A stretch of 64,000 nt of DNA from an uncultured Verrucomicrobiae bacterium (GTDB lineage Bacteria > Verrucomicrobiota > Verrucomicrobiia > Limisphaerales > Palsa-1400), in assembly GCA_963702845.1 (NCBI GenBank), contig OY969763.1, forward strand, positions 534,719-598,718, given 5' to 3'. This document shows positions 5,511 through 32,816 of this stretch, piece by piece (the first letter of the stretch is position 1; each line of letters starts with the position of its first letter). The notes beneath the pieces were generated by a model. That model was given only the letters and a program-made list of their open reading frames with translations, made no database searches and had not been told where the DNA came from. A program made the translations under genes and the position numbers.

Positions 5511-5513
5511 AAA

Positions 5514-6662: not shown

Positions 6663-6726
6663 GGCGTATTGTAAACGGGAATTGCAGCAGAAGTGCGATA
6701 CTTTTTTGTGGTGCCGAATGGCGTGG

Positions 6727-11583: not shown

Positions 11584-12120
11584 TGAATAGGACGAGTGAA
11601 GCGACGCGGGGCAGGGAATGCAAATGTTTTCGCCTTAACAAAAACGGAGCAATTACGCCGTCCATCGCAACAAAATACAGCTTCAAACGTTGGCCTTGCA
11701 ACCCGCACTCCGGAAAAGTTCCCGGAATGTTGCTACAACCAGCTACTAGTCACTACAACTTGCAACCCGTAGTAACTTTCAACCAGCTACTTTGCAACTG
11801 AGGGAGTTTAAAACTTGAGAATTTTTCATCGAATTTTCGCAGGATTTGATGCGGGTCTGGATTTGGAAACCGTTGATGTGCGCTGATTTGTGTTAATCAG
11901 AGGGCGTTCGAGGGGGGTGGTTGTTTAAACCGCAACTACCCGAAACTCTCCGCAACACTGAATTTTGACCTCGTAGCAAATCCCGCTCGGACAACGACTT
12001 AGTGCGAATTACGAAATTGGGCGAAATTCGGACAATTTAGGGGAATTCCGCACGATTCCGTACCTTTTCGCATCATTTTTCCTTTTCTGATGCACTTTTG
12101 ATTTTCAAAGACCAAACGAA

Positions 12121-12248
12121 GTTTGGATCCAATTCCAAGCTCTGGGCCAGCCAACGGGGGCTGATTGCTTATCAATGTATAGTAACGTTACTACTTGTCA
12201 ACGCTGTCGGTTTTGCTGTTTGGGTTTGTGGCAAAACGATAAATGGAA
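12121..12248 (+). repeat. copy 1 of a ~130-bp intergenic direct repeat (about 85 % identical to 16533..16657)
   Basis: Aligns to the second copy with a few substitutions/indels, both in the same orientation: accaaacgaagttYggatccaattcMaag...ggggctgattgcttat...aacgttactacttgtc...gttttgg/ctgtttgggtttgtgg. Confidence 0.7.
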
Positions 12249-12318
12249 ATGTAAAGGACTGACCCTGCGAGCGTAGGGACAAAGAATTGAGGGTGGGGGG
12301 TGCAGTTGCTGCCAGAAA

Positions 12319-15300
12319 TTATGGCAGGCGTATTCGGTAGAAGCGTGTCGAATAGTTTGTCCACTGCGGGTCGGTGTAAAAGGAGATGTTTCCGGAAAGT
12401 GTGTTGGTAGAGACAGGTGTCCAATCGGTCAGGTTGGTGGTGGCTTCGACCACTGCGACAAGATTGCTGCTGCCGATCATGTTAAATCCAAATTGGTTGG
12501 CTTGTAGGCCGAAGGTGCTGTCGGCGAGTTGAATCATTAAACCGTTCCATAACACGACGGGAAGGCCGTCGAGAGTTGAGCCCCATCCTGTGGTCCCCGA
12601 GAAGTAATAGACCGTTGCCGGCTGGGTTTGGGCAAATGCGTTTGGATCCACTCCAGGTGCGTTGCCTTGAAAAATGACGTTGCGGAGGTTGGGGCACAAT
12701 TCGAAGACGTCGTTGGAGATGCCGGTGATTTTTGGGCCGAGGATTATGGTATTGAGATCCGAACAGGAAGCAAAGGCATAGCTGGCCAGGGTAGTGACGT
12801 TTGCGCCGAGAATAATGCTGGTCACGTGTGTGCCGGCGAATGAGTAGGTGGCGATGGTGTTGACGGTGTCTGGAACTCTGTAGCTACCCCTAAGACCTGT
12901 TGGGGAACTGGATCAGGGTGGTTTGGTTTTTGTTGAACAGAACGCCGCCCAGACTGCTGAACGTTAAATTTTGGGGCGACACCGAGATAGAGGTAAGGGT
13001 GTCGCATCCGGCAAGGGCTTGTGAGCCGATTGTATTTACATTGGTCCCGATATTAATGCTCGTGAGGTTTGGAGAATCGTAGAAAGCATCGAGCAAAATG
13101 CTGGTGACTGTGGCGGGAACGGTGTAACTGCCGGCGAGGCCGGGAGGATATTCGACGAGAGTCGTTTGGCTTTTGTTGAAGAGGACGCCGTTGAGGCTGC
13201 TGTAATTGGGGTTGAGTGAGTTGACGGTTATCGCCGTGAGATTGGTGCAGCCGAAAAACACGGGATTGAGGATGCTGGTTACGTTTTGGGGGAGGCTGAT
13301 ATTTGTAAGGCTTGTGCATTGGTCAAATGCGCCGGTCTTGATGGTGGTCAGCCCCGTGCCAAGGGCGACACTGGCGAGGTTGGAGCATGAATTAAAAGCG
13401 TAGTTGCCGATCGTTGCGATGCTGTTTGGAAGGGTGATGGAAGTCAGGGCCGTGCAATGATCGAAGCTGCCGCCAGTGCTGGTAAGCCCCGGGGTAAAGG
13501 TGACGTTGATCAGGTTGGAACAATAACCAAATGATTCGTCGCCGAAGGTGGTTATTTTGGGTGGGATAATGACGTTAGTGAGGCCGCCGCAACGGTAAAA
13601 TGCATTCATTCCCATGGTAGTCACGTTGGTGCTGAGGACGAGATTGGTCATGGCGAAGCACTGGTCGAAGGCGTAGTTGCCAATGCTGGTGATGGAATTG
13701 GGCATAACTACACTGGTGAGATTGGTGCAATTTTCAAAAGCGTTATCGCCAATCGACGTTATGCCGTTCGAGAGAGTGACGCTGACCAGAGCAGGACAAT
13801 TGTTAAAGGCGGATGCTCCGATTGAAGTGATTTTGCCGGGAATGACAATATTGGTCAGACTTTGGCATTGCGTGAAGCTGCTAGCGGCGATTGAGGTGAC
13901 GTTGGTTCCAATGGTGACGTTGGCGAGGCTGATGCAATTTGCAAACGCAGCACCGAGGGTCGTGACTGTATTCGGGATCGTGATAGCTGTCAGGTTGCTG
14001 CAACTCGAAAAGGCGGACGCGCCAATGTTCAGAATGCCATCCGCCAAGGCAACGGAATTCAAGGAACCGCACCCCTGGAAGGCAGAGGCTCCAATGACTT
14101 TGACGCTTCCAGGGATTGCAACGCCAGTCAACTGATAGCAGTTCATAAACGCCTGGGTTCCAATATTGGTAACACTGCCCGGAATGCTGACGGACGTTAA
14201 GCTCGTGCAATTGCGAAAGGCACTGTTACCGATATTGGTGACGCTATTCGGGAGAACGATGCTGCTGAGGCTCGAACAACCGGAGAAAGCGGAGGTGTTG
14301 ATAACGGGAACTTTGTTGCCGATCGTGACACTTGAAAGACTGGTGCAGTTGAGGAATGCGCTGCTGCCGAGATTGGTGACGGTGTTTGGGATGCTGACGG
14401 CCAGACTTGAGCAATTCTGAAATGCGGCAACTCCGATGCTCGCGACCGTTGCCGGGAGCGTCATATTGGTCAAGTCGGTGCAGCCTTCGAACGCTGTCGC
14501 GGCGATATTAGTAAGGCCAATTGGCAAAGAGATGCTTCCGAGGCTTGAGCAATTTTGAAACGTGGAGGTCGCGATGTTTTTGACGTTCGCAGGAAGAGTG
14601 AGGCTGGCGAGTGTTGCGCAACCTTGAAAGGCGGTGGTGCCGATGGTGGTGACGGTGACGGGAATGCTCACGTTATTAAGGTCAGTGCAATCTTGAAATG
14701 CGGTGTTTCCGATGTTGGTAGCAATTGAAGGAAGAATGACGTTGGTGAGGCTAGTGCAACCATAACAGAGAAAGTTGCCAACGTTCTTCATCGAGCCGGG
14801 CAATTTATCGAGGCGAGGCTGGAACAATCCTGAAATGTTCTGTCGCCGATTGAAACGACAGTGGTCGGGATGCTGATCGAGATCAGGTTTGCGCACCCGT
14901 CAAAGGCGGCAGTGGCGATATTGGTGACATGCGCTGGAATAAAAACGGAAACGAGATTGGAACAGTTGCCGAACAGGCTGGATCCGATGCTGGCCAGGTT
15001 GGTGCTGAGAGACGCGTTTGTCAGACTGAGCAACTTAGGAACACACTGACACCAAGGTTGGTGACAGCATCGGGAAGAATGATGCTTGGAAGGTTCGTGC
15101 AGTCGGCAAAGGTGTCGTCACCGATTGAGGTAACATTGGGCGGAATAGTGATGTTGGTGAGGTCGAGCAACCAGAGAATGCGTAGTAACCAATCGATTTG
15201 ACGCCGAGAGGAATGTTGACGGTGCTGAGACTGACGCACCCTTGAAAGGAGTAGTTCGGAAGAGTGGTGATGGCAGTTCCCAGATAAGCGTTTGTTAAAG

Positions 15301-15717
15301 AATTACATCCGTTAAAAACTCCGACGCCGAAATTGGTGACAGTATCGGGCACGGAAACAGCACTCAAGTAGAAGCAGCCATAAAAAGCGCTATCACCTAT
15401 AGTCTTTAACCCAGATCCCAGATTTATATTGGTCAGGTAAATATTTTGGTCGAACGCTCCCGCGCCGAGGTTTGTGACGCTGTTCGGGATGGTGACATCG
15501 TTGAAGGAGTTGTTGTGCTGAAATGCACTGTCCGCGATGCTGGTGACGGAAGGGCCGTGATGGTGTCCGGGATGTTGACCGTCCCGCCTGGACCAGAATA
15601 GCCCGTAATGGTAATCGTTCCGTTGTTTGTGGTGTAGTTGAATTGCGCCTGACCGGACGATGGCATTATCGCGACAAATACAAAAGATAACCGCAATAAG
15701 GTGAGGATGGTTTTCAT
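12319..15717 (-). pseudogene. BspA-type leucine-rich-repeat (LRR_5) surface protein, broken into at least 6 frames; carries the FYR-type C-terminal tail
   Basis: Consecutive minus-strand ORFs (15433..15801, 15035..15367, 15021..15239, 14788..15033, 12890..14896, 12319..12825) all encode the ~23-aa BspA-like unit (IPNSVTSIGNYAF..C.SLTSV.L). The N-terminus is MKTILTLLRLSFVFVAIMP, a signal peptide. The C-terminus is ...EATTNLTDWTPVSTNTL...RFYRIRLP. Frame breaks may be sequencing or assembly errors in this highly repetitive gene. Confidence 0.7.
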
Positions 15718-15811
15718 CAATTGCGCTGCGCGCCTAGGTTCACAAGTCACCTGGGCCTGCCTCGATTTGGTAGACAGGTTGTGTCTGAGTGCGCATGACA
15801 CATTGGGATTA

Positions 15812-15925
15812 TTAGTTTAGTTGCGTTTCAAAGTCTACAGGCGATTGGTAACCGAGGGCGCTGTGGAGCCGCCTGCGGTTATAAAAAATCTCCAATCCAT
15901 TCCTGTCCCCCAATTCGAGGCAAGT
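15812..15925 (-). mobile_element. short C-terminal remnant of an IS3-family transposase (integrase-core tail)
   Basis: The ORF 15812..16057 ends ...LEIFYNRRRLHSALGYQSPVDFETQLN*, the characteristic IS3 OrfB C-terminus (..FYNxxRxHSxLGYxSPxxFE). The upstream part of the ORF is not transposase-like, so only a ~35-aa relic remains. Confidence 0.45.
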
Positions 15926-16109
15926 CCAAGGCAAATTCTTATCAGTGCAGCCGAGCAGAACGACAGTGTAATGGTGAAACCATGTCGAGGCGGCGAACCA
16001 CTGGATGGCGCGGGCAGCTTCCTTCTTTGCTGAGAGAAATTTCAGGGCACTCCGCATTGCGGGCGTTGTATCTCCGTCGTTATGTATACAACGTAAACCG
16101 AAGGAAATT

Positions 16110-16394
16110 ATGAAGATTCAAATGATGATTGTTACGGTGGCTCTTGGGCTGATGGTTGGTTGCGCTTCCAACAACGTTAATGAACCTGCAGGAGCGCAGG
16201 CCATGGGGACACGTTTCAGCGAGCTTCCGCTGGCAGTGCAACACACAATCCGGACACAAAATCCCACGGGCCAAATTGCTGACATCGACAAGGAGAGGCG
16301 TTCAGGCCGCGTCATTTATGAAGTTCAATTCGCTGAACCAGGGCTAAATCCAAGACTGCATATCGCGGAGGATGGCACTTTGTTGATGAAATAA
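16110..16394 (+). CDS. small lipoprotein (PepSY-like?)
   Basis: MKIQMMIVTVALGLMVGC has a lipobox, followed by an ~75-aa domain (RFSELPLAVQHTIRTQ...GRVIYEVQF...). A GC hairpin ATTGGCCGCT-N7-AGCGGCCAAT lies downstream at 16430..16456. Confidence 0.45.
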   Translation: MKIQMMIVTVALGLMVGCASNNVNEPAGAQAMGTRFSELPLAVQHTIRTQNPTGQIADIDKERRSGRVIYEVQFAEPGLNPRLHIAEDGTLLMK

Positions 16395-16532
16395 AGTGCT
16401 CAAATTTTAACAGCACATGCGACGACTAGATTGGCCGCTTATTAAGAGCGGCCAATCCGGGGGTAGTTTTCAAACCGAAAGCGGAACGTCTGGCCCGCAT
16501 CCCAAACTCTTCGTAACACCGAACTTCGGCCG

Positions 16533-16657
16533 CACAACAATACCAAACGAAGTTCGGATCCAATTCAAAGTCCCGGTCCCAAAGGGGGCTGATTGCTTAT
16601 TATTGTATTCTAACGTTACTACTTGTCTTCGTCATCGTTTTGGTTTTGGGTTTGTGG
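16533..16657 (+). repeat. copy 2 of the ~130-bp direct repeat (see 12121..12248)
   Basis: Same alignment as copy 1. It lies between the lipoprotein gene and the transglutaminase-like gene. Confidence 0.7.
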
Positions 16658-16760
16658 AAAAAGTTGGGATTGACACCAAGATTTTCTATTCTTTTCGGAC
16701 GGATGATTGATTGAACATGCTGGATTCTAAATTCCAGATTGATACGTTTGTCGCGATAAA

Positions 16761-18762
16761 ATGTTAAGAGATCGCCACTTAGTCCAAGTTGTAAGGATCG
16801 GCTTATTTTGCTTCGCGGCAACATGTGCTAATGCGGTTGGCCCTTCTATTTCAGAACCGCGTGTTTTGGAATCCCTTTCAAATCAAGTTGTAAGCGCACA
16901 GGATGTATTGCGAGTAGATCCAATGCCCAAATGGGTGTTGCCTTTGCAATTCGAATGGCCGTCCCAAGCGGCATTAAATGCACCTGGCGAGGATCATCGC
17001 CTCTTGCTTTGGGACGAACAGATCAATGCTGAAACACTGCAACGATTCTTCCACTCCAGCGGCCGGATTTTGTCCAGCGCCGGGTGCAAAATGGCTCTCA
17101 TATCTCGGTTGATTTCGATCCCGCATTTCAGAATTTGACCTTTCATTGGGTAAAAGGTCTTGCGCGGCAATAAGTGGATCGATCGCCTTGACATCAGCAA
17201 AGTTAAAATCATTCAGCGGGAAACCGGCATGGAGGAATATTTATTTAATGGCGAAAAATCAGCCGTGCTGCTGTTGGATGATGTCCGCGTTGGCGACGTC
17301 GTTGATTACGCGTACACACTCAGCGGGGACAATTCAGTTTTTGCCAGCAAGTTCGCCGATTCTGTAACAGTCCAATTGTCGGAACCTGTGGAACGAATAT
17401 CCACCAGACTGTTGTGGCCCACACAGCGTCACCTTTATATTAAGAACCACGGCACGATTGCTCCGCCGGTTGTTGTTCGACGTGGGAATGCTTTTGAATA
17501 CAAATGGGACTTCAAAGAAATTTCCCGGACAGCCCTCAGACGGTTCTCTGCCGACCTGGTATGACCCGCGACCATGGGTGCAACTTAGCGAATACAAAAC
17601 ATGGGCCGAAGTTAATCAATGGGCATTATGGCTGTTCCGGGATACCAACGGCTTTTCGCCTGAACTTGTGGAAAGGGTGCGTGAATGGGGAAAGATCGCA
17701 AACAAAGAGGAACGCGTTCTGACAATATTGCGCTTTGTCCAAGAAGAGGTGCGATATCTCGGTCTCGAAATGGGAGCCGGTTCATTTAAGCCTTGCGGCG
17801 CATCAGAAGTTTTTGCGCGTCGGTTTGGCGATTGCAAGGACAAGTCCATGCTTTTCGTTTCCATACTAAAGGCATTGCAGATTGAGGCATATCCCGTGCT
17901 CGTAAACACCAGACAGCGCCACGCGCTGGATCACTGGCAACCGACCGGCCCCGCGTTCGATTACGTTGTTTCACTAGTGAAAATTGATGACCGGATATTT
18001 TTGGCTCGACCCCACCAGAACCTATCAGCGCGGGCCATTAACTTCTCGTGCGGTCGGCGATTACGAAAGAGGACTGGTTGTAAAGACGGGAACGGCGAGC
18101 TTGTCCGTTATTCCACATCCGTCAGCAGAATCCCAAACTTCAATTGCAGAGTACTTTCAAATAAGGGCGACCGACGAGCCAAGCGAACTCCGAGTCATAA
18201 CTGTTGCAAATGGCAAGGATGCCGAGGGTTTTCGACGAGAATTTGCGACCACACCGCGCGCTCAAATCGAAAAGGCATATTTGAACTACTACGCGGCAAC
18301 ATACCCTGAGATCAGGCAAACTGCTCCAATTTCGTTCACTGATGACGAATCAGAGAACCGAATTGAGATTACAGAAACGTAAACTCGCTTAACAGAATTT
18401 GGACGCGGCCTTCTGAAGATCACCCGTTCCGTTGCGAGTTTTCTCCTCACACGTTGACGCACTTATTGAAAGCACCCGTTGTATCGTTACGGACAATGCC
18501 GTTGGGTTTAGAATTTCCACAGCACGTGGTTTTCAAAATTGAGGCAAGCCTGCCTCGAACATGGTTCATACAAAATGAACAAAAGAAAATCGAAGGCGAC
18601 GCTTTTTACTTCCGCAGTAACGTTGCGGGCGGCCTAAACAAGCTGACTCTCGAATACGAATACAAGACTTTGTCGGATTCAGTGCCGGTTGAAAGTATGC
18701 CGGATTATTTGCGCCATTTGGATGATGCGTGGCAGAATCTTGGTTATTCCATTCGCCTGTGA
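16761..18762 (+). pseudogene. DUF3857 / transglutaminase-like cysteine protease family protein, fragmented into at least 5 frames
   Basis: Track ORFs 16761..17138, 17160..17564, 17458..18309, 17984..18382 and 18454..18762 read in series. They give a signal peptide, a DUF3857-like block (LLLDDVRVGDVVDYAYTLSGDN), a transglutaminase core (FGDCKDKSMLFVSILKALQIEAYPVLVNT) and a DUF3858-like C-terminus. Together they make up about 650 aa. Confidence 0.65.
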
Positions 18763-18767
18763 ATTGG

Positions 18768-18801
18768 AACCCGCAAACGAGGGCACCTGCGGGTTTGTTT
18801 G
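18768..18801 (+). terminator. rho-independent terminator candidate after the transglutaminase-like gene
   Basis: AACCCGCA-N12-TGCGGGTT forms an 8-bp stem followed by TGTTTG, starting 6 nt after the stop codon. Confidence 0.45.
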
Positions 18802-18853
18802 AGACACTAAACCGCTTGCTCACGCGCGCGGCTCTGATGTTAAGTTACAGCGC

Positions 18854-19270
18854 ATGAACTACTGGATCGTCAAACAGGAACCGGAAGATTATTCATTTGC
18901 GGATTTTGTGAGGATGGGAAAACGGCGTGGACCGGCGTGCGCAATTATCAGGCTCGAAATAATCTTCGCGCCATGAAAACCGGCGATAAGGTGTTTTCTA
19001 TCATTCGGGCGAAGAGAAGGCGATTGTCGGTACGGCTCGAGTGGACAAAGCCGGCTACCTGACCCGACGGCGAAGGAAGGCGATTGGGTGGCAGTTGACC
19101 TTAGAGCAGAAAAACCTTGGCAAAACCAGTCTCTCTGCCGCTATCAAGGGCGACAATCTCCTGAAAGATATCACTCTCGCGCGCAATTCGCGATTGTCAG
19201 TTTCTCCGCTTCAAGGAGCAGGAATTCTGAGCAGTATTTTGGAATTGGCCGAGCTGATTAAGTGGTTAAA
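18854..19270 (+). pseudogene. EVE (PUA-like) domain protein with about 3 single-base homopolymer deletions
   Basis: MNYWIVKQEPEDYSFADFVR-GKTAWTGVRNYQARNNLRAMKTGDKVF-YHSGEEKAIVGTARVDKAGY-DPTAKEGDWVAVDL matches the EVE domain. Restoring one base in each of the agg(g), ttt(t) and cc(c) runs gives a continuous frame. The 3' end is approximate. Confidence 0.6.
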
Positions 19271-19469
19271 TGACGAAAATCGTAAAAAGGCCAAAACGCT
19301 GAATTTGCACAAGGTGTTGAATGTTTCGTTTGCCACGCATCCCTTATATTGTATTGTGCGAACGGAAAATTGGGCATGGCAAATGGGAAGCGTGACTGCT
19401 CGTTTTACAAAAGTGGCGAGTTTGTCACAAAAGAACGTTACGTTGTGAAATAGAAAACCGTGAAACTGA

Positions 19470-22169
19470 AACAACCGAAAGTTAAATCGTCCTCCAGTTC
19501 GGAACCATGCTGCTTCGCGCCAGTGGAGGCGCGCACTGAACGTCTCGTCAATCGCTCGAAAACGTGCTCGAATATACGCTGAAAAGCCAAGGCGCGGATC
19601 AGGTGAATATTTTCCTGGAGAACCTCGTCGAACGCCTTCAGGCCGAAGGGTTGAAAGTCGCTCCGCCGGTTAACACGCCTTACGTCAATACGATCCCGGC
19701 CGAGAAAGAACCACAGTATCCCGGCAACCGCGAAATCGAGCGGCGAATAAAGAGTCTCGCGCGTTGGAATGCGATGGCGATGGTGGTAAATGCAAATCGC
19801 AATGACAGCGGCGTCGGTGGTCATATTTCCAGCTATGCTTCGATGGCGACGCTTTACGAAGTCGCCTATAACCATTTTTTCCGCGGCGGCGACAAAGGGC
19901 CCGCTGACTTGATTTATTTCCAAGGCCACACGACTCCCGGTAATTACGCGCGTGCATTTCTCGAATATCGTCTCGATGAAGGGCATCTGCACAATTTCCG
20001 CCATGGAACTGGCTGAAGGCGGCGGTTTGCCATCTTACCCGCATCCGTATTTGATGCCGGATTTCTGGCAATTCCCCACGGTATCGATGGGCTTGGGGCC
20101 GACTTTGCTCGATTTATCAGGCGCGATTTATCCGTTATCTCAAAGCTCGTGGTTTGCTCAAACCGAACAAGAACCGCGCGTTTGGGCGTTCATCGGCGAT
20201 GGCGAAACGGATGAACCGGAAACGCTCGGGTTCGATCAGTTTGGCCGCGCGCGAAAATCTGGACAATTTGACGTGGGTCGTGAACTGCAACCTGCAACGT
20301 CTCGACGGTCCGGTTCGCGGGAATAGCAAGATTATCCAGGAACTCGAAGGCATGTTCCGTGGGGCTGGTTGGAATGTCATCAAAGTGATTTGGGGTTCGA
20401 ACTGGGATGAATTGTTCGCTGCGGATAAATCCGGCTTGCTCCTGAAGCGGCTTGATGAGGCGGTGGACGGTGACTTCCAAAAATATACCGTCGAACCCGG
20501 TAGTTATATTCGTCGCCATTTCTTCGGCAAATATCCCGAGTTGCTGCGAATGGTGGATCATCTCAGCGACGAGCAATTCACGAAGCTCGTCCGTGGTGGT
20601 CATGACCCGAAGCAAGGTTTACGCGGCTTACAAAGCTGCTATGGAACACAAAGGACAGCCGACCGTGATTCTGGCCAAGACCGTCAAAGGCTACGGCCTC
20701 GGTGAAGCGGGCGAAGGTCGCAATATTTCGCATCAGCAGAAAAAGATGAACGAAAAGGAACTGCGCGAGTTCCGCCTTCGTTTTGACATTCCGATCGGTG
20801 ACGAAGACGTTGTTGATACGCCGTTCTATCGTCCGCCCAAAGATTCGCCGGAAACAACTTATTTGCTCGAACGCCGGAAAAAGCTCGGTGGTTTCGTTCC
20901 GAAGCGCATCGTTAAAGCCGGAGCCACTGCAGACGCCGCGCAGCTGACTTCGTTCCCAGATTTGCTTAAAGGCAGTGGCGCGCGTGAAGTCTCCACCACG
21001 ATCGCATTCGTCGCGATGTTGAATCACCTCGTGCGCGATCCTCACATTGGCCGTCGTGTCGTGCCGATTATTCCCGATGAAGCCCGCACGTTCGGTATCG
21101 ACCCGATGTTTGCGCAGATTGGTATTTATTCGTCGAAGGGGCAGCTTTACGAGCCGGTCGATAAAAAAGGCTTGAGCTTCTATCACGAGTGCAAAGACGG
21201 ACAGATTTTGGAAGAAGGCATCACCGAATGCCGGTTCGATGTCCTCGTTTGTCGTCGGCCGGGACTGCTTACGCGAATCACGGTGTGAACATGATTCCGT
21301 TCTTTATTTACTATTCGATGTTCGGTTTCCAACGCGTTGGTGACGAAATCTGGCTGGCTGGCGATTCGCGCTCGAAAGGTTTCATGCTCGGCGCGACTGC
21401 TGGACGGACGACGTTGAACGGCGAAGGATTTACAACACCAAGACGGTCATAGCTTGATGATGGCCAGCACCGTGCCGAATCTTTTCGCCTACGATCCTGC
21501 TTTTGCTTACGAGGTCACCACGATCATCTGCGACGGGATGAAGCGCATGTTTCAGGACGGCGAAGAAAGTTTCTATTATCTGTGCCTCTACAACGAGAAC
21601 TACCCGATGCCGCCGATGCCGGCGGTTGCCAGGAAGGCATTCTCAAGGGCCTTTATAAATTCCAGGAAGGCGCACCAGGCAAGAAGCACAAGGCGCAGAT
21701 TTTCGGCAGTGGTCCCGATCATCGTTCGGCTTTGAAGGCTCAGCAGATTTTGGCTGAACGTTACGATGTTTCCGCCGATGTCTGGAGCGCGACCAGCTAC
21801 AAGAATCTCCGCAACGACGCGTTGCTCTGCGAACGTTGGAACATGTTGCATCCGACCGAAACGGCGAAGAAACCTTACGTTCAACAGTTGCTCGAAAAAG
21901 AAAAAGGGCCGTTCGTTGCCGTGTCGGATTCCATGAAGATCGTTCCCGATCAGATTTCGAAATGGGTTCCCGGTGGTCTCACCACGTTGGGCACAGACGG
22001 CTTTGGCCGCAGCGAAACGCGCGGTGCATTGCGTCGGTTTTTCGAAATCGATGCTGAGAGCGTGGTGCGTCGCGACCTTGCGCCAGATCGATCCGAAACT
22101 TGCCGCGCAAGCTATCAAAGATTTGAATATTAATCCTGAAAAAGCTTCCCGCAGCTTGCTACCCATTAA
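19470..22169 (+). CDS. aceE: pyruvate dehydrogenase E1 component, read across at least 6 frame breaks (5' end approximate)
   Basis: Successive frames give [20 protein letters not shown]..., [98 protein letters not shown], ...[13 protein letters not shown]..., ...[19 protein letters not shown]. The stop taa is at 22167..22169. An (a)5 run at the last break suggests a homopolymer deletion. Confidence 0.8.
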
Positions 22170-22172
22170 AAT

Positions 22173-23477
22173 ATGGACGTTAAATTACCTACATCTCGGC
22201 GAAGGCGCCGACTCCGGCACAGTCGTTAACATTTACGTCAAAGAAGGCGACCAGATTGCAAAAGGCCAGAGCATCATTGAACTGGAAACTGGCAAAGCCG
22301 TCGCGCCTGTGCCGTCTTCTGCAGCTGGCAAGGTGACGAAAGTTCTCGTCGCGGTCGGTGACAAAATTTCTGTCGGTGCGCCGTTGATTTCTGTCGGCGA
22401 AGGGGCGCTGGGGCACCGCTCCCGCTGCGGCAAACCCGCTGCTCCCGCTAAGGCCGCTTCGGTTCGTGCAACAGTTGCTCCCGCAGCTGCACCAGTAGCG
22501 GAAATGGACGAACCATGGAAGTCGAGGCTGACGAAGCCGATGCCGGGCGCTACCGCCAGCCGCTTCGCCTACGATTCGCCGCATCGCGCGCGAACTCGGC
22601 ATCGACCTGCGCAAAATTCGCGGCAGCGAATCCGGCGGCCGTATCGTCATGGCCGACGTCCGCGCTTACGTCCAACGCTTGCAACGAGTCGCTGCTCAGC
22701 CTCGCGCCGCCGCCGCCGTGCACCTGCAGCGCCGGCGAAGAAAATTGAATCGATTGATTTCTCGAAGTGGGGCCCGGTCGCTGAAGAAGCCGATGACGCC
22801 ACTGCGCAAGGTCATCAGCCAACGCATGGCCGAAAGTTGGAACGCAGTTCCGCGCGTCACGCAGTTCGACGAAGCCGATCTCACTGTTGTCACCGATCTT
22901 CGCAAAAAATACGCCGAGGTTTACGACAAGAAGGGCGCGAAACTCACGCTGACTAGCTTTGCGATCAAAGTTGTCGTCGATGCGTTGAAGAAGCATCCGA
23001 TTTTCAACACCAGCCTCGACGAAGCCGCTGGCGACATCATTTACAAGGAATACGTTCACGTCGGTGTTGCCGTGGATACCGACCAAGGGTCTAATCGTTC
23101 CGGTGATTCGCGATGCGGACACCAAAGACATGGTTCGCCTTTCCAAAGAACTGAACGACCTCGCGACCAAAACTCGCGAGCGCAAAATCGGCATCGAAGA
23201 ATTGCAAGGCGGTTCGTTTACGATTTCAAACCAGGGCGGCATCGGCGGCGCTCATTTCACGCCGATCATTAACAAGCCTGAAGTCGCCATTCTCGGTATC
23301 GGCCGTGGTTCTTTGAAGCCAGTCGTTCGCGAAGGCAAAATCGAGCCGCGCCTGATGTTACCGTTGACTCTCGCTTACGATCATCGCGTCATCGACGGCG
23401 GCAACGCTGTGCGTTTCATGCTCGAGATCGTTAAGGGCTTTGAAAAATTCAGCGAAGCTGCAGTAAAGATTTCCTAA
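22173..23477 (+). CDS. aceF: dihydrolipoamide acetyltransferase (PDH E2), frameshifted
   Basis: Lipoyl domain MDVKLP(H)LGEGADSGTVVNIYVKEGDQIAKGQSIIELETGKA, with an extra a at cctAcat breaking the frame. A peripheral-subunit-binding domain follows (RIARELGIDLRKIRGSESGGRIVMADV). The catalytic domain ends ...LTLAYDHRVIDGGNAVRFMLEIVKGFE. Confidence 0.8.
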
Positions 23478-23480
23478 CAC

Positions 23481-24908
23481 ATGGATCCGATCAAAACAGA
23501 TATCGTTGTCCTCGGCGCTGGTCCCGGCGGATATGCCGCGGCATTTTATGCCGCTGACATGGGCAAAAAAGTTCTGCTCGTCGAACAAGATAAACGCCTC
23601 GGCGGCGTGTGCCTCAATCGCGGTTGCATTCCGTCGAAAGCATTGCTCCACGCCACGCATTTGTTCGGCGACGCCCGCGAATCCGCTCATCGCGGCATCG
23701 TGTTCAGTGAACCGCAAATCGATTTGGAAAAACTTCGCGCGTGGAAAAATTCCGTGGTTGAAAAACTTTCTGGCGGTATCGGTTTCCTGGCGAAAAAGCG
23801 CGGCGTGCAAGTGCTCTACGGACGCGGCTACTTCGAAGATTCGAAAACATTGCGCGTTGAAACCGCTGAAGGCCAGCAATTCGTAAATTACGAAAAGTGT
23901 ATTGTTGCCGTTGGTTCCAAGGCCGCGTTGCCTAAAGTGTTTGATCTCGGCAATCCGCGCATCATGACTTCGACCGAGAGCTTTGGAAGTCGAAGAAATT
24001 CCCGAAGACCTGCTCGTCGTTGGCGGCGGTTATATTGGCATGGAACTCGGCACCGTCTACGCGAATCTCGGCAGCAAAGTGGTTGTCGTTGAAATGCTCG
24101 ACACCATTCTGGCCGGCGCAGATTCCGACCTCGCCCGCCCAGTGCATGAAATACGCGGAGAAGAATTTTCGCGAACTTCGTTTCAAAACGAAAGTCGTTG
24201 AAATGTCGACCAAGGGCAAAAAAGTGCGCGTCGTTACCGAAGGTCCCGATAAAGTTAAAAAAGAAGAACTTTACGATCGCGTGCTTGTGTCGATTGGTCG
24301 CACGCCAAATTGCCGCGATCTCGGCTTGGAAAACACCAAGGTCGAGCAGGATGAAAAAGGCTTTATCAAAGTTAACGAGAAGCAGGAGACAACTGACCCT
24401 TACATCATGGCCATCGGCGACATCGCTGGCGGCGTCATGCTGGCGCATAAGGCTTCCAAAGAAGCGCGCGTCGCCATCGAGGCGATTTTCGGTGAAGAAA
24501 GCACCTCGGAAGGTGTCGTAATTCCCGCGGTTGTTTTCACTCATCCCGAAGTCGCCTGGTGCGGTTTGACCGAATCCGAAGCGAAGGCAAAAGGCATCCA
24601 TGTCGAGGTCGCGAAATTTCCTTGGGGCGCTTCCGGTCGCGCGTATGACCTTTGATAAACCGGAAGGTTTAACGAAGCTGATCATTGACCCTGAAACCGA
24701 ACGCGTTCTCGGAGTTGGAATTGTCGGTCACGGGGCAGGGGAACTCATCGCCGAAGGCGTGCTCGCCGTCGAAATGGGTGCCACCGCGCAAGACCTCGCT
24801 GAGACAGTGCACCCGCATCCGACCCTTTCGGAGACGATGATGGAGTCCGCGGAAGTTTTCTACGGTCACCCGACTCACACGCTCGCGCCCAAAAAACGCG
24901 AGGAGTAA
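23481..24908 (+). CDS. lpdA: dihydrolipoamide dehydrogenase (PDH E3), frameshifted at least 3 times
   Basis: [52 protein letters not shown], then [28 protein letters not shown], then [17 protein letters not shown], ending ...[17 protein letters not shown]. These are read across the track ORFs 23481..24092, 23983..24201, 24020..24655 and 24600..24908. Confidence 0.8.
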
Positions 24909-24909
24909 T

Positions 24910-25818
24910 TTATTTCTGTCCCAGATAACGCACTGCGTTCTCCACAATTTTGCGGGGAATCGGTTGTGTGAGGATGGGATATGTTTCGTGTCCTGGGCGG
25001 AAATAGAAAATTTTACCTTTTCCTAATGTCCAAAGACAGCCGGCAGGAAAGGTTTCGTTCGTATCCCATTTTTCGTCGAAGATTTGTGCATCTGGTTTAG
25101 GCACGTGAAACGGGCCAGCGTAAACTTCTGTCTGGGGAATATCAAACGTCTTCGGAACACCGCGCGCAATCGGATGGTCGGGCAACAACGTAGTGATGTG
25201 ACTCGGTTTGCCATCGTTGTGAACGCCGGGAAACACGCAACTAGGCAACTTCACTTCTAAAACATCCTCACCGTTTGGACCGTTGATGCGTTTAGTCCAC
25301 GGGGTTAAAGGCCCGTTCGCCGGTGCCAATCCGCCGAGGTCAGGCGGGTTAATTTGCAGCTTAACTTTCGACCGTTCATCCGCCGGAACAGAAGCAATCG
25401 CATCAGCAATCGCCTTTTGCCCATCGAATCAATAAAAACCTTCGACCAATGCGCCGAGTGCAGCGCGATCAAATTTAATTTCCCGGCGATGATCCGTTTC
25501 ACGATGTCGTGCACGTGCTCGTCTTTTACCTCGCCATGCCGCTGGTGCCCCCACCAGATGAGGACATCGCAATTGTCGAGGGTCGCCGCCGAAAGCCCTT
25601 GGTCCGGATCATCCAGGCGCACGGACTTCACTGTGACTCCGGGCTCTTTCGACAAATAATCCGCAATGGCATTGCCCAAGAAAGTTTGTATAGGCCTTCT
25701 TTTGCGCCGGCTGCGCTTCGTCCCAGACGACGACTCGAATTGGTCGCGCCGCCATCGTGCCAAGGACGACTAAAAAGAAAGCGACAATCGCGACGAATCT
25801 GCGGCAGGTAGAAATCAT
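24910..25818 (-). CDS. ThuA-like (trehalose-utilisation / GATase1-like) secreted protein, frameshifted
   Basis: Three minus-strand fragments: MISTCRRFVAIVAFFLVVLG...RVVVWDE, then ...CDVLIWWGHQRHGEV...LIALHSAHW, then ...GKGKIFYFRPGHETYP. Confidence 0.55.
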
Positions 25819-25876
25819 ATTTGCATCTTATTCGTCGGGCTTTGCGCGTCGATAAAATAGTGGTATCAGTGCTTTC

Positions 25877-26434
25877 ATGATCAGACCGTGGCCAAAAAAA
25901 TCTTCCAAATTCCTCGGCGACTTCCGCGTCTTCAAAGTGCGCTCTGACGAAAAAATTTCACCGCGCACAAATGAGGTGCATGAAATGTTCGTCCTCGAAT
26001 CGCCCGACTGGGTGAACGTCATCCCGATTACCACCGATGGCCAAATGGTGCTGGTCGAACAATACCGCCAAGGCTCGGACACAGTCGAACTCGAAGTCCC
26101 CGGCGGCGTGATGGACAAAACCGACAAATCTCCCGTTGAAACTGCCTGCCGCGAATTGAAGGAAGAAACCGGCTACGAAGGTGACAACGCGCGCGTCATC
26201 GGCAAAGTGTTTCCAAACCCCGCCATCATGAGCAACTCGTCCTACACCGTGCTCGTGGAGAATTGCCGATGCGTTTGTGAGGTGAATTTTGACAGCGGAG
26301 AGGACATAATCACCCGACTTGTTGATCCGGCGAGCATTCCTAAGTTAGTCGCAGAGAACAAGATACGTCATTCCATCGTCATCGCTGCCCTCTATCATTA
26401 CGAGCTCTACAGAGATTTAAAAAATTTTAAATAA
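25877..26434 (+). CDS. NUDIX hydrolase (ADP-ribose pyrophosphatase-like)
   Basis: The NUDIX box GGVMDKTDKSPVETACRELKEETGY is present in an intact 185-aa ORF. Confidence 0.8.
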   Translation: MIRPWPKKSSKFLGDFRVFKVRSDEKISPRTNEVHEMFVLESPDWVNVIPITTDGQMVLVEQYRQGSDTVELEVPGGVMDKTDKSPVETACRELKEETGYEGDNARVIGKVFPNPAIMSNSSYTVLVENCRCVCEVNFDSGEDIITRLVDPASIPKLVAENKIRHSIVIAALYHYELYRDLKNFK

Positions 26435-26439
26435 TTTTT

Positions 26440-26473
26440 CACTTGGACAGCCTTTGTCCAAGTGAGGTTTGTA
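26440..26473 (+). terminator. terminator hairpin after the NUDIX gene
   Basis: CACTTGGACA-gcctt-TGTCCAAGTG is a perfect 10-bp stem 6 nt after the stop, followed by aggtttg. The track ORF 26443..26691 begins inside this hairpin and is probably spurious. Confidence 0.45.
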
Positions 26474-26700
26474 GAGTTGTTGGCATGATTACTACAAATC
26501 AGATGGAATTAGGTTTCGAGCAACAGCAACTTTCCGCCAACGGCCGCGCGCGCCACAGCAGCCGCCAGACTCGCGCCGATTGGTGGTTCAGGCAGATGCG
26601 CCGCGTAGTTGACCTCGCGATGGAATGGCGTCCGGCACCTCGCGCGCGCCATCAACAATCCTACATGGTCCTCTCCGCTCGCCAGTCCTGAGCACACAAA

Positions 26701-26737
26701 GGGCGATGGTTGGACGTGCATTGTCCAACCATCGCCC
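26701..26737. terminator. perfect 15-bp stem hairpin (GGGCGATGGTTGGAC-N7-GTCCAACCATCGCCC) just downstream of minus-strand xylA
   Basis: A long perfect inverted repeat 22 nt beyond the xylA stop. A T-run (cttttg) follows on the plus strand. Confidence 0.4.
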
Positions 26738-26758
26738 GGAACTTTTGAAACGTTGCGA

Positions 26759-27793
26759 CTATTTCCCCAACAGATGCTCAATGACCATCTGGTCGAGATT
26801 CTGATAATCGCGATTCACGATGAGCTTCTTGGCTGCGGCGTCGTCGAACGACCGCGCCTTCTCGACCAATCGCAAAAATGTTTTGCGGCTGTTATCGAGG
26901 TGAGCGAGCCAATGCTCCGGCTTCGTCGTGCGGAACGGATGCACGTCGAAACAAACGTATTCGCCGTTTTTGCCGTATCCATTTCGTTCAAGAGCGCGCA
27001 CTTGGTTGAACGCTGAACGGAGATTGGTGCTGCCGAATGGCTTGTCCTGGTCGAACTTCAAACCGTTCTGATCGTTCAGGTGCAACGACCACAATTTCCC
27101 AAACGCCATCGCAAAATCGATTTCATCTGCGGGGTCCAAACCAGCCAAAATCGCATGCGCCGATTCGATCAAACAACCAACGCGTTTTGGGTCGCGAGTG
27201 AGCTGCGCGATCGCGAGAGCGTGACCAATCGTTGGAATGTAAGCGTGATCCATCGGCTCATTCGGTTTCGGTTCGATCGACAACCGAACCTTTTTATCGG
27301 CAGCCAACATCTTGTCGAACGCCTCAACCAACAAATCAACGCTGCGACGGCCGTTCTTGGCTTCACGCAGGTATGTGCCTTCCCGTGCCAGCCAAAGAAC
27401 CAGCAAGTCGGTCCCGAGAATTTTTCCGATTTCGATACAGCGCAGAGAACGATCGATTGCGTATTGGCGATGCTTCGGATCATTGCTGGTGTAAGCACCG
27501 TCGATGGTGTTCGGCGAAAACCAAAGTCTCGGCGCGGTCATTTCCGCCGCGACGCCCGCGTCGTCCAATTTCTTCTTTAGCTCCTTCGCTTCCTTGCGAA
27601 TCTGCGCGTCCGACTTTCCATCGATATCCGGTACCGCGTCATCGTCGTGAAACATCATCGCGTCGAACCCGAGCTTCTTCAGCGCACCAAGCTTCCAATC
27701 AAAATCCTGCGCGGGACGCGTGGTCGGCCCGTAAGGATCCTGACCTTCGCTGATGTTCCACGGGCCGAAACAAAATTTATAACGTGTGGGCAT
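26759..27793 (-). CDS. xylA: xylose isomerase (class I-like, 344 aa)
   Basis: FGPWNI...MFHDDDAVP...LSIEPKPNEP...HLNDQNG.KFDQD...MVIEHLLG mirrors the class I XylA motifs (FTFGLWTV / FHDDDL / IEPKPNEP / DLNGQ). It is about 40 aa shorter than typical, so the assignment is good but not certain. Confidence 0.7.
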   Translation of the reverse strand: MPTRYKFCFGPWNISEGQDPYGPTTRPAQDFDWKLGALKKLGFDAMMFHDDDAVPDIDGKSDAQIRKEAKELKKKLDDAGVAAEMTAPRLWFSPNTIDGAYTSNDPKHRQYAIDRSLRCIEIGKILGTDLLVLWLAREGTYLREAKNGRRSVDLLVEAFDKMLAADKKVRLSIEPKPNEPMDHAYIPTIGHALAIAQLTRDPKRVGCLIESAHAILAGLDPADEIDFAMAFGKLWSLHLNDQNGLKFDQDKPFGSTNLRSAFNQVRALERNGYGKNGEYVCFDVHPFRTTKPEHWLAHLDNSRKTFLRLVEKARSFDDAAAKKLIVNRDYQNLDQMVIEHLLGK

Positions 27794-27850
27794 AATTCAA
27801 TTCCAAATTAATTGTTCAAAGTTCAAGGTCGACGCGCTAATCTCCGCGCA

Positions 27851-29217
27851 ATGACCAACAGACTGACGACGCTGCTTATTTTGCTTTTCGCCGTGCTTGC
27901 GGCAAGCGCCAAATCGCCAAACATCATTATCATTCTCGACGATGACCTTGGCTTCGGCGACCTCGGCTGCTACGGCAATCCAAGTATCAACACTCCAAAT
28001 CTCGACCGCATGGCAGCCGAAGGCCTGCGCTTCACCGAATATTACGCGCCGCACAATCTCTGCACCCCCAGCCGCGCCGCGCTGCTCACCGGACGGCTCG
28101 CGTTGCGTAGCGGCATGCAAGGCAGCGAAAAACATCACGTCCTTTATCCGAACAATACCGGGCGGCCTTCCCGAAAGCGAAATCACCATCGCCCGCGCGC
28201 TCAAGACCGCCGGTTACAGCCACTTGTGCAATCGGCAAATGGCACCTTGGCTGTTTGCCGCAATACCTGCCGACCAGTCACGGCTTCGATTACTTCTTCG
28301 GCCTCCCATATTCCAACGACATGGACACGTCCAGCGCGAAAGTCCGCAACCAGGACAGCGACGGTCAACATCCCGACTGGCATCATTTCAACGTCCCATT
28401 GATGCGCGGCACCAACATAATCGAACGCCCTGCCAATCAGGAAACCCTCACTCAACGCTACACGGACGAAGCGGTTAAGTTCGTGCGCGACCATCGCAAA
28501 AAACCGTTCTTCATGTATTTCGCGCATACTTTCCCGCACGTGCCGCTTTTTGCCTCCGACAAATTCAAAGGCAAAAGCAAGCGCGGTCTCTTCGGCGACA
28601 CTGTTGAAGAAATGGACTGGAGCGTCGGTGAACTCTTGCGCACGTTGCGCGAAGAAAAAATCGCTGATAACACATTTGTCTTCTTCACCAGCGACAATGG
28701 TCCTTGGCTAATCCGAAAACTCAATGGCGGTAGCGCCGGCCTGTTGCGCGACGGCAAAGGCGGCACTTGGGACGGAGGCCATCACGTGCCAGCAATCGCA
28801 TGGTGGCCTGGCAAAATCAAACCCGGTGTCACGAGCGAAGTTGCTTCGGGACTGGACCTCTTCACCACATCGCTCGCCTTAGCTGGCGTTCAGCAACCGA
28901 CTGATCGCGTCATTGACGGCCTCGACATGCGCCCGCTGCTCTTCGACGGAAAATCGCAACGCGATACCATCTTCTTCTACGCCGGGCCAGACCTTCGAGC
29001 CGTCCGGCACAATAACTACAAGGCGCACTATATTACTCAGGATGGCTACAGCAAAGACCCACCGGTGATACACAATCCTCCTTTGCTAATGGAAGTCGAC
29101 CAGGACCCGAGCGAAAAGTTCGACATGACCAAAGACCATCCCGAAGAACTCAAAGCCATCGAGCGCATCGTCAATATGCACAAAGCCGTGATGGTTCCGG
29201 GGAAACCACAATACTAA
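27851..29217 (+). CDS. arylsulfatase-family enzyme (formylglycine CxPSR motif), frameshifted at least twice
   Basis: Signal peptide [20 protein letters not shown], then [19 protein letters not shown] and [17 protein letters not shown]. After a frame break comes [19 protein letters not shown]...FFTSDNGPW...[20 protein letters not shown]. It reads across the track ORFs 27812, 27897 and 28255. Confidence 0.75.
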
Positions 29218-29218
29218 C

Positions 29219-30085
29219 ATGAGTCTGGAAATTCCTGGTCGCGTAAAACTCTCCACCGGCAACGGCGATCTGCCAAAGGTCGCCATCACATCGGACTGGA
29301 GCACTGCAGAAATTTATCTACACGGCGCGCACGTCACTCACTTCCAAAAGAACGGCGAACCCCCGGTTCTTTTCATGAGCCAGAAGAGCCGCTTCCAACA
29401 CGACTCACCTATTCGTGGCGGCATCCCGATCATTCTGCCGTGGTTCGGTTCGCGCGAGGGCCATCTCGCTCACGGGTTCGCTCGTTTGCAGGAATGGGAA
29501 ATATCCGACACCTCCGAAAATAAAGGTGCCGTAAAAACCCATTTCACGATGCCGAACTGTCAGGCTGCCGCAGAATTCCCACCATTCGCCATCGAGTTCG
29601 TCGTGACCGTCGCCCAGTCGCTAACCTGTGAACTCCTCATTACCAATAAATCTCAGCAAAACTTCACCTTCGAAGACTGTCTCCACACCTATTTTCAAAT
29701 CGGCGATGTCAGCCAGATTTCCGTCACCGGTCTGAAAGGCGCAGCTTATCTCGACCAAATGGAAAACTTCGCCCGCAAAACCGAAACCAACGACCAAATC
29801 AAAATTACCGGCGAAACCGACCGCATCTATCTCAACACCGAATCCACCGTTGAAATCCACGACGCAGAACTAAAGCGCCGCATTCGCATCGCAAAGTCCG
29901 GCTCCCACTCCACGGTCCTTTGGAACCCCTGGATCGACAAATCCAAACGCATGCCCGATTTCGGCGACGAAGAATTTCACCACATGGTCTGCGTCGAATC
30001 CTGCAACGTCTCCGAAAACAAACGCACGCTCGCCCCCGGCCAAACGTCGTCTCTCAAAATCGACTTAAGCACCATTCTGTTGTAA
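29219..30085 (+). CDS. aldose 1-epimerase family protein (glucose-6-phosphate 1-epimerase, YeaD-like)
   Basis: GGIPIILPWFG..HGFAR...W and ...H.YF motifs. The start codon is 1 nt after the sulfatase stop. Confidence 0.6.
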   Translation: MSLEIPGRVKLSTGNGDLPKVAITSDWSTAEIYLHGAHVTHFQKNGEPPVLFMSQKSRFQHDSPIRGGIPIILPWFGSREGHLAHGFARLQEWEISDTSENKGAVKTHFTMPNCQAAAEFPPFAIEFVVTVAQSLTCELLITNKSQQNFTFEDCLHTYFQIGDVSQISVTGLKGAAYLDQMENFARKTETNDQIKITGETDRIYLNTESTVEIHDAELKRRIRIAKSGSHSTVLWNPWIDKSKRMPDFGDEEFHHMVCVESCNVSENKRTLAPGQTSSLKIDLSTILL

Positions 30086-30136
30086 GAAATAGTTCATCTT
30101 GTTCGAGATCGCCGCTAAAACACGCCCACACCGCTC

Positions 30137-30457
30137 ATGAAAAGCATCGCCCAGCTCAATCCCGATTCGGCCGCCAATCTGACGGAGTGGTTGAAACAGG
30201 AGCAAATCCCTTGCGAAACCAAAACCGCTATCGACGAAGGAGGACTTGAAGTAGTAGACGTTCTCGTTGCAGACGAAGATTTCGACCGCGCGTGCGACGC
30301 CGCCGAAAAATGGGACGCCGCGATGCAGGCCGAGCGAGAAAAAAAATCGACCCGCAAATGCGACCAATGCGGCTCTAACCAACTCGAAACCGTTCCTCAC
30401 GACACCCTGGAAATGGTCCTCCGTTGCAAAGCCTGTGGAACCCTCATGCCGCTCTGA
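30137..30457 (+). CDS. hypothetical small protein with C-terminal CxxC...CxxC zinc ribbon (DUF2007-like)
   Basis: 106-aa ORF with CDQCGSN...CKACG at its C-terminus. Confidence 0.35.
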   Translation: MKSIAQLNPDSAANLTEWLKQEQIPCETKTAIDEGGLEVVDVLVADEDFDRACDAAEKWDAAMQAEREKKSTRKCDQCGSNQLETVPHDTLEMVLRCKACGTLMPL

Positions 30458-30652
30458 TTTCGGCAAATTATCAACTCGGTCTGCGCATCTCCGCCTCTTT
30501 GCTTCTTTGCGGCTTTGTGTTGAACTCCGACTCACCGACTTACCCACTTACCGTTCCCTTGCTGCCTTGGCAGTAAGATCCGACTATAAATCTGCGACCA
30601 TTTTATAACTGACATCCCCCTGAACCTCCCTCAACATACTGATGTAAAGCAT

Positions 30653-31216: not shown

Positions 31217-31231
31217 TCCAACAACAACGAT

Positions 31232-32770: not shown

Positions 32771-32816
32771 AACATTTGTAGTAGCCGACGTCAGGAGGCT
32801 CTAGGATAAACGGGCG

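Follow-up and report, generated by a model that had tools for sequence, protein, structure and literature searches.

Gene-fragmenting indel errors have been documented in long-read assemblies, where they are worse at low coverage (PMC8103633; PMC12007338), and indels of 1–2 bases split open reading frames and inflate pseudogene counts unless polishing or frameshift-aware correction removes them (PMC8103633; PMC12007338; PMC8011154). Here we analysed a stretch of 64 kb (the window) from a Limisphaerales/Pedosphaera-like verrucomicrobium, whose source assembly is a single 6,027,559-bp contig, as is typical of long-read assembly. Between positions 11911 and 28221, the first and last event and therefore the limits of what we call the tract (~16.3 kb), the window carries ~54 indels of 1–2 nt, on average one per 302 nt. 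At least 44 of them lie in coding sequence (14.1 kb) and together they split ten genes, pyruvate dehydrogenase among them. We consider it very likely that these frameshifts stem from errors in the consensus of the deposited assembly.

The indels are confined to the tract (Table 1). In ~42.6 kb of flanking coding sequence, one candidate frameshift was found against 34 expected under a uniform rate (P = 7e-14), coding-potential Viterbi decoding trained on the flanks found no change of frame inside any gene beyond the tract, and alignment of five flank genes with their orthologues gave no frameshift. Within the tract the events are over-dispersed (variance/mean 1.75), being densest at 18.8–23.1 kb with ~1 per 140 nt and absent from 12890–14896 and 25874–27843. 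Its ends ignore gene and island borders, the left one lying in an intergenic spacer and the right one at codon 123 of the sulfatase gene, and its size is about that of one long read. The initial annotation had described about 30 breaks confined to 12319–29217 between intact flanking reading frames. The regional restriction is borne out by the Viterbi frames, the flank alignments and the deficit of flank events, and many breaks are indeed present, its minimum counts per gene all being valid as lower bounds in frameshift-aware alignments and ORF pieces; its coordinates and its total, on the other hand, are superseded by those given here, and the flanks are intact nearly throughout, the exception being the probable shift in a barstar-like gene.

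Table 1. Features of the tract and its surroundings (window coordinates).
Feature	Position	Strand	Observation
Left flank	4350-11910		100% identity to contig L162
C-run length differences (n=3)	11911, 12144, 12156		Intergenic spacer 11911-12156; comparison with L162
Structural disagreement	12236-12237		L162 continues into sigma-70/DUF3738, prepilin-like gene and probable CDP-alcohol phosphatidyltransferase fragment; window continues into LRR gene
BspA-type LRR gene	12319-15801	-	At least 5 frame switches: ~12826-12900, 14788-14896, 15021-15036, 15180-15239, 15433-15560
Apparent IS3-type transposase C-terminal relic	15812-16057	-	Translation ends in RRRLHSALGYQSPVDFETQLN
DUF3857/transglutaminase-like gene	16761-18762	+	5 frameshifts: ~17085 del, 17153 ins, 17525 ins, 17995 ins, 18378 del
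EVE-domain gene	18837-19254	+	5-7 single-base events, mostly deletions, against intact 140-aa EVE gene of L164
aceE (pyruvate dehydrogenase E1)	19523-22160	+	14 events
aceF (E2)	22173-23477	+	6 frame changes: 22194, ~22516, 22551, 22718, 22780, 23087
lpdA (E3)	23481-24908	+	Three 1-nt insertions: 23979, 24145, 24644
ThuA-like gene	24910-25830	-	Insertion ~25675-25683, deletion ~25412; intact in L001 and L164
NUDIX gene, 68-aa ORF, xylose-isomerase-like (AP_endonuc_2) gene	25877-27793		0 frameshifts; identity 88%, 91%, 97.7%
Sulfatase	27851-29217	+	1-nt insertions ~28163 (+C) and 28221 (+C); synonymous substitution 28057
Right flank	28222-31840		100% identity to contig L163
Barstar-like gene	48385-48712		Candidate -1 shift near 48.59 kb, probable, in T-run; sole flank candidate

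A direct test of the tract edges came from two contigs, L162 and L163, which belong to an independent Logan assembly of run ERR10755946. Because the flanks are identical to these contigs over 11,180 nt with 0 differences, we take both to derive from the same strain. At the tract edges, in contrast, 5 indels and 1 substitution were found in 530 nt (Fisher P = 8e-9 versus the flanks). L162 matches the window over 4350–12236 with no mismatch and three gaps, every one within the last 326 nt, while L163 departs from the window over 28018–31840 at the substitution 28057 and at the inserted C residues at 28163 and 28221, so that its sulfatase reading frame is unbroken and both sulfatase frameshifts of the window are missing. 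All five comparable indels (11911, 12144, 12156, 28163 and 28221) and the substitution are thus missing from the same-strain contigs. This comparison reached 5 of the ~54 indels, at both edges, and the interior was judged by orthologues of ~84% nucleotide identity; the ~49 indels outside the overlap we infer to be artefacts as well. Exact-protein look-ups for same-strain contigs of the tract interior (NUDIX proteins of 185 and 149 aa, the xylose-isomerase-like protein, the 68-aa ORF and a PepSY-like ORF) returned no match, which is uninformative, since two flank genes are likewise not on record.

For the interior, events were called by frameshift-aware alignment to intact orthologues, with the loci L164 and L081 as references, which share ~84% nucleotide identity with the window and are colinear with it over 18.8–34.9 kb. 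EVE, aceE, aceF, lpdA, ThuA and sulfatase genes are intact in both, as are the orthologues in L001, a 3.7-kb locus that was the exception among the 80 loci found in a scan of GTDB genomes with the xylose-isomerase-like protein, where synteny otherwise comprised this gene and an epimerase. A homologue search with aceE yielded short fragments and no full-length close AceE, which L164 supplied. In the left part of the tract, the frame switches of the LRR gene were read from six ORF pieces, each matching Pfam LRR_5 or bearing a signal peptide, together with the Viterbi frames. The transglutaminase-like gene has Pfam matches, and its shifts agree across six homologues of 647–783 aa with no in-frame stop. 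The EVE gene and the spacer up to 19549 carry 11 deletions in succession. The apparent IS3-type relic is probably a real truncated remnant and not an error; its assignment relies mainly on the recognised C-terminal motif, its sole family match being a weak one to rve_2 (E = 0.0057), whose 17.2 bits fall short of the 22-bit gathering cut-off.

Removal of the indels restores full-length EVE, AceE, AceF, LpdA, ThuA, sulfatase and transglutaminase-like proteins, and ~11 kb of repaired coding sequence contain no in-frame stop. Repaired AceE aligns over 877 aa at 93% identity without a stop, repaired LpdA (474 aa) is 95.6% identical to LpdA of L081 and L164, and the seven restored proteins share 84–96% of their amino acids with close orthologues, similar to the unbroken neighbours; overall, identities to orthologues are normal (84–98%). 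The repaired genes look functional. Relative-rate counts for LpdA were even (8 vs 8, 8 vs 10 and similar), with no lengthened branch and no excess of substitutions; LpdA therefore shows no neutral decay. An intact same-strain copy of LpdA was not seen, since a collection of 5.8 billion proteins contained no complete LpdA with an identity of at least 97% and nothing above 96.4%.

The spectrum of the events points in the same direction. Insertions (~28) and deletions (~26) are about equally frequent and, linker length variation apart, all events comprise 1–2 nt; large deletions are absent, as is the deletion-biased, size-varied spectrum of decay. Association with homopolymers is weak: of 41 indels whose position could be fixed exactly, 13 adjoin a copy of the same base and 5 fall within runs of at least 3. 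This does not bear out the earlier emphasis on missing bases in homopolymers, and the base inserted in aceF at 22194 is a T and not, as had been read, an A. The motif search at the indel sites revealed no common slippery motif; the GC-rich, GGGC and CCGG enrichment that it returned was weak and picked post hoc, and such motifs were dropped as a cause. The ratio of insertions to deletions shifts from 6:18 left of 19.55 kb to 22:8 right of it (P = 8e-4), which would fit different underlying reads.

We therefore favour consensus error, in agreement with the initial reading of a poorly supported or poorly polished assembly segment, which the edges of the same-strain contigs, the intact orthologues and the stop-free repair uphold. 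Very few error-prone long reads, perhaps one or two, probably underlie the 16.3-kb consensus, which would have missed correction by the data that rendered the flanks error-free; random indels of 1–2 nt would consequently have persisted, at ~0.3% overall and ~0.7% at 18.8–23.1 kb. Low read support as the cause, like the sequencing platform, is what we infer from this pattern. As the tract starts 326 nt before the path split at 12236/12237, it probably represents a long-read bridge or a minor-variant path, which would probably cross a strain-variable or repeat-bounded junction. The organism itself most likely has an intact EVE–aceE–aceF–lpdA–ThuA–NUDIX–XI–sulfatase block, like its relatives. Some points speak against the error reading: polished nanopore or HiFi consensus seldom leaves random indels outside homopolymers, the search for LpdA turned up no intact copy from this strain, and there is no evident cause for poor coverage of a block that contains an essential operon and whose synteny with the right flank is shared by relatives.

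This path split leads to an alternative that is compatible with consensus error and which we hold as a serious though tentative one, namely that the window follows a structural misassembly or a minor-variant path at 12236/12237, by a chimeric join or a rare population variant. A chimeric join would stem from one long read or be repeat-induced. On either view the dominant arrangement would place the sigma-70/DUF3738 segment beside the 1618-aa gene, and the tract would be badly polished because few reads back the junction path. The window and L162 agree as far as 12236, a point 326 nt into the tract from its left end, so that the tract adjoins a possible misjoin or minor structural variant; the errors begin ahead of this junction by the same distance. 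Past it, L162 carries 2.9 kb of other genes that are missing from the 64-kb window, apart from one match to a paralogous prepilin-like gene at 47041–47817, and that show no synteny with L164; one of them, judged by inspection of the translated sequence, is probably a fragment of a CDP-alcohol phosphatidyltransferase. The window junction moreover truncates a repeat element that is whole in L162, with complete copies also at L162 527–579 and at window 16539–16683, and the adjoining 12.2–18.8 kb are low in GC (0.485–0.51), contain the apparent IS relic with its weak rve_2 match and are not syntenic with L164. ORF 1–507 of L162 and ORF 12319–12825 of the window both encode 168 aa, a coincidence of length without similarity. 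However, the right two-thirds of the tract (18.8–28.2 kb) are colinear with the right flank in relatives and are therefore rightly placed, so that normal coverage would be expected there if the left junction alone were wrong. L163 stops at 28018 and shows no alternative path, and a de Bruijn contig such as L162 may itself turn wrongly at a repeat. The join at 12236/12237 should meanwhile be regarded as unverified.

Genuine and very recent mass pseudogenisation, a local burst of frameshifts that would have inactivated pdh and its neighbours in the sequenced clone, caused for example by error-prone repair synthesis over the 16 kb, with the contigs of ERR10755946 as unmutated siblings, appears very improbable. 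It would account for the presence of the indels in the deposited sequence, for their clustering and over-dispersion and for the failure to find an intact same-strain aceE or lpdA, but every comparable indel is missing from the same-strain contigs, the sulfatase lesions included, and neither nonsense codons nor an excess of substitutions accompany the frameshifts. In bacterial pseudogene decay, insertions are rarer than deletions and larger events occur, whereas here insertions are not rarer and no event exceeds a few nucleotides. Fourteen independent events in one gene without other damage are implausible, and loss of pdh is usually under strong negative selection. A related idea, a mutation shower placing real single-base frameshifts over the 16-kb tract of a subclone, e.g. 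by error-prone break-induced or gap-filling synthesis, is in our view scarcely credible; if true, pdh and nine neighbouring genes would have been inactivated with the flanks spared, again with the independent contigs as unmutated siblings. Programmed recoding, in which ribosomal frameshifting, transcriptional slippage or phase variation restores the frames, can practically be dismissed, since nothing beyond the existence of frame changes speaks for it and it would have to accommodate as many as 14 shifts of either sign in a single gene, at sites that share no slippery motif and belong to runs of at least 3 in 5 of 41 cases, with no shift conserved in orthologues and two missing from the same strain (L163).

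The frameshifts of the tract are thus very likely no real biological feature, and their importance is mainly one of quality control. The ten apparent pseudogenes at 11.9–28.2 kb, among them every component of the pyruvate dehydrogenase complex, are unfit as evidence of gene loss or for metabolic reconstruction. The pseudogene calls, earlier labelled provisional, should now be discarded. More generally, an otherwise exact single-contig genome can conceal a read-length patch of raw-read-like quality, which is recognisable from sequence alone by many indels of 1–2 nt without nonsense codons, by intact orthologues and by ends that ignore gene borders.

In comparison with known systems, the tract shares its ORF-splitting indels of 1–2 bases with the errors of long-read (nanopore/PacBio) assemblies and single-contig MAGs. 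Such errors are, however, usually genome-wide at low coverage and concentrated in homopolymers, while here they occupy one 16.3-kb tract within exact sequence, lie mostly outside homopolymers and comprise about as many insertions as deletions. Pseudogene clusters of reductive evolution in host-restricted bacteria resemble the tract in that many neighbouring genes are broken, central metabolism included, but true decay clusters display nonsense mutations, larger deletions, deletion bias, relaxed substitution and reproducibility between samples, none of which is seen in the tract. A candidate match is offered by unpolished long-read bridges, gap fills or alternative-haplotype paths in hybrid and metagenomic assemblies. 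The tract differs from these in having no structural disagreement at its right end, and resembles them in being a low-quality stretch of read length between accurate flanks, adjoining a junction at which data sets disagree.

In the window (GC about 54%), which belongs to a genome assembled as a single contig of 6,027,559 bp, the contig on record for exact matches to its 150-aa aceE fragment and 149-aa NUDIX protein, short overlapping ORF pieces lie at about 12–29 kb and long ORFs in the remainder. Two independently assembled contigs of run ERR10755946 (Logan assembly), which come from the same strain, were found by exact-protein look-ups with window proteins and could be compared with the window at the two edges of this region. 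L162 (10.8 kb) aligned to 4350–12236 without mismatches, its three gaps being C-run length differences (11911, 12144 and 12156). L163 (3.8 kb) was identical over 28018–31840 except for one synonymous substitution at 28057 and two insertions. The latter are extra C residues in the window at 28163 and 28221 and constitute both sulfatase frameshifts, the L163 sulfatase fragment being uninterrupted over 398 aa. Since the same-strain contigs differ from the window inside these limits and match it exactly outside, we set the indel-rich tract at 11911–28221, with one end in a spacer and the other in mid-gene. Counted over the two edges only, same-strain differences amount to 6 in 530 nt within the tract vs 0 in 11,180 nt outside (P = 8e-9). 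L163 also displays the split of the aldose-epimerase region (29219–30457, + strand), where a stop and a 51-nt spacer divide into ORFs of 288 and 106 aa what is an undivided 399-aa gene in the related contig L164 (13466–14665). As it recurs in an independent same-strain contig, this split, a gene fission or fusion, is real.

To catalogue the breaks over the tract, contigs of relatives were used. L081, recovered when metagenomes were scanned for the NUDIX protein, is colinear with 20860–32920 at about 84% nucleotide identity. L164 represents that organism at greater length (57 kb, assembled from short reads) and is colinear with the window over 18.8–34.9 kb, from the EVE gene to cysS. All orthologues are intact in both, and ThuA is additionally intact in the 3.7-kb contig L001. 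With L164 proteins as queries in a purpose-written frameshift-tolerant protein-to-DNA aligner, we obtained the event counts in the table; no in-frame stop was found in the repaired genes in these alignments, and identity to L164 (84% to 98%) did not differ between broken and unbroken genes. For the transglutaminase-like gene, 5 shifts were agreed by 6 distant homologues from a representative search, and at least 5 frame switches are needed to connect the 6 pieces of the LRR gene, each of which matches Pfam LRR_5 or has a signal peptide.

Features of the broken region and its surroundings, with 1–2-nt events counted against L164 proteins
Feature	Position	Strand	State	Events
Repeat copy (junction)	12110–12236		intergenic, truncated	
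BspA-type LRR gene	12319–15801	-	broken	
Apparent IS3-type transposase relic	15812–16057	-	truncated remnant; weak rve_2 match + motif	
Small secreted protein	16110–16394	+	intact	
Repeat copy	16539–16683		intergenic, complete	
DUF3857/transglutaminase-like gene	16761–18762	+	broken	
EVE gene	18837–19254	+	broken	5–7, mostly deletions
aceE	19523–22160	+	broken	14
aceF	22173–23477	+	broken	6
lpdA	23481–24908	+	broken	3
ThuA-like gene	24910–25830	-	broken	2
NUDIX	25877–26434	+	intact, within tract	0
68-aa ORF	26485–26691	+	intact, within tract	0
Xylose-isomerase-like gene	26759–27793	-	intact, within tract	0
Sulfatase	27851–29217	+	broken	2
Aldose epimerase	29219–30085	+	intact, flank	0
NfeD, flotillin, YdjM, CysS			flank	0
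Barstar-like gene	48385–48712	+	apparent -1 frameshift near 48590, T-run	
Repeat copy, L162	527–579		intergenic	
Repeat copy, L162	2870–3017		intergenic	

In total, about 54 events, including the three edge differences and spacer indels, were counted between 11911 and 28218/28221, an average of 1 per 302 nt. Their spacing is over-dispersed (variance/mean 1.75), with a density peak at 18.8–23.1 kb and two event-free intervals, each roughly 2 kb long. When reading frames were traced by a seven-state Viterbi path whose codon log-odds model had been trained on 20 flank genes, intragenic switches were confined to the tract, and the flanks changed frame at gene boundaries only. Were the rate uniform, the 42.6 kb of coding sequence in the flanks should contain 34 coding frameshifts; 1 candidate was observed (P = 7e-14). 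The regional frameshifts described in the initial annotation are thus borne out and more sharply delimited. The flank candidate is the barstar-like gene, whose Pfam Barstar match covers profile positions 2–52 of 96 and extends to 2–77 upon a one-base repair of the T-run (52.9 to 63.3 bits).

Nucleotide alignment to L164 over 18.8–28.3 kb yielded 41 short indels, 22 insertions and 19 deletions. The emphasis previously placed on homopolymers did not hold up, with only 5 of the 41 in runs of three or more and 13 beside an identical base; neither a slippery nor any other shared motif was present at the indel sites. For the tract as a whole, insertions to deletions stand at 6:18 left of 19.55 kb vs 22:8 right of it (P = 8e-4), and such an abrupt change of error type would fit different underlying reads. 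Eleven deletions follow in succession at 18854–19549, after which insertions prevail (20004–28218). The 15-nt indel contexts at 18.8–28.3 kb are weakly biased towards high GC (0.577 vs 0.535), with GGGC and CCGG, motifs picked post hoc, nominally enriched, which could hint at context-dependent base-calling error.

The junction that adjoins the tract at its left edge represents a misjoin or else a minor structural variant, since L162 departs from the window at 12236, the breakpoint is the edge of a 50–150-nt repeat, and 12.2–18.8 kb has no synteny with L164, with lower GC and an apparent IS relic. Past 12236, L162 lacks the LRR gene and instead carries a different 2.9 kb with genes for a sigma-70/DUF3738 protein and a prepilin-like protein, together with a third, fragmentary gene which, read by eye, we take to be a putative CDP-alcohol phosphatidyltransferase; save for a paralogue of the prepilin-like gene, these genes do not occur in the 64-kb window. 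Both L162 copies of the repeat and the downstream window copy are complete, but the window copy at the junction is truncated. The element, with the core TTGACAAGT(A/G)GTAACG, is located 5' of genes in divergent orientation and might act as a common promoter or regulatory element. The IS3-type relic directly upstream of the LRR gene retains about 30 last residues of an apparent transposase, ending RRRLHSALGYQSPVDFETQLN; family support is one sub-threshold rve_2 match (E = 0.0057), and the relic, within a variable segment of low GC, looks like a trace of former insertion-sequence activity. Such a junction could have left this path with scarce read support. It leaves the poor quality of the conserved 18.8–28.2 kb part unaccounted for.

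In bacterial pseudogenes, substitutions far exceed indels, and indels are biased to deletion. Accordingly, 54 real indels would be expected alongside hundreds of substitutions and several stops. The repaired genes contained neither nonsense codons nor large deletions, and insertions were not under-represented, with up to 14 events in one gene. Relative-rate comparisons against five close homologues, for which three outgroups were used, showed no lengthening of the repaired LpdA branch (8 vs 8, 8 vs 10, 12 vs 9 and similar). An intact lpdA or aceE from this strain was not recovered, the search for LpdA extending over a 5.8-billion-protein collection. Real localised hypermutation of the tract is, in our judgement, very improbable, and the assembly artefact suspected in the initial annotation gains support from same-strain contigs free of the edge indels, the lack of stops and the balanced LpdA rates.

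Most likely, a read-length stretch of long-read consensus was left uncorrected, and the indels remaining in such a patch would fragment the genes. The finding is a quality-control flag rather than biology. Among the AceE homologue hits, many are N-terminal fragments of 200–260 aa from other public assemblies, where they lie on contigs of considerable length, 50 kb to 1.6 Mb (P0002, P0006, P0015, P0047, P0055, P0062, P0098 and P0109), which suggests that frameshift-split aceE is common in long-read MAGs, although a search favouring query-like target length may contribute. Long-read assemblies are well documented to carry gene-fragmenting indel errors, a problem that grows where coverage is low (PMC8103633; PMC12007338).
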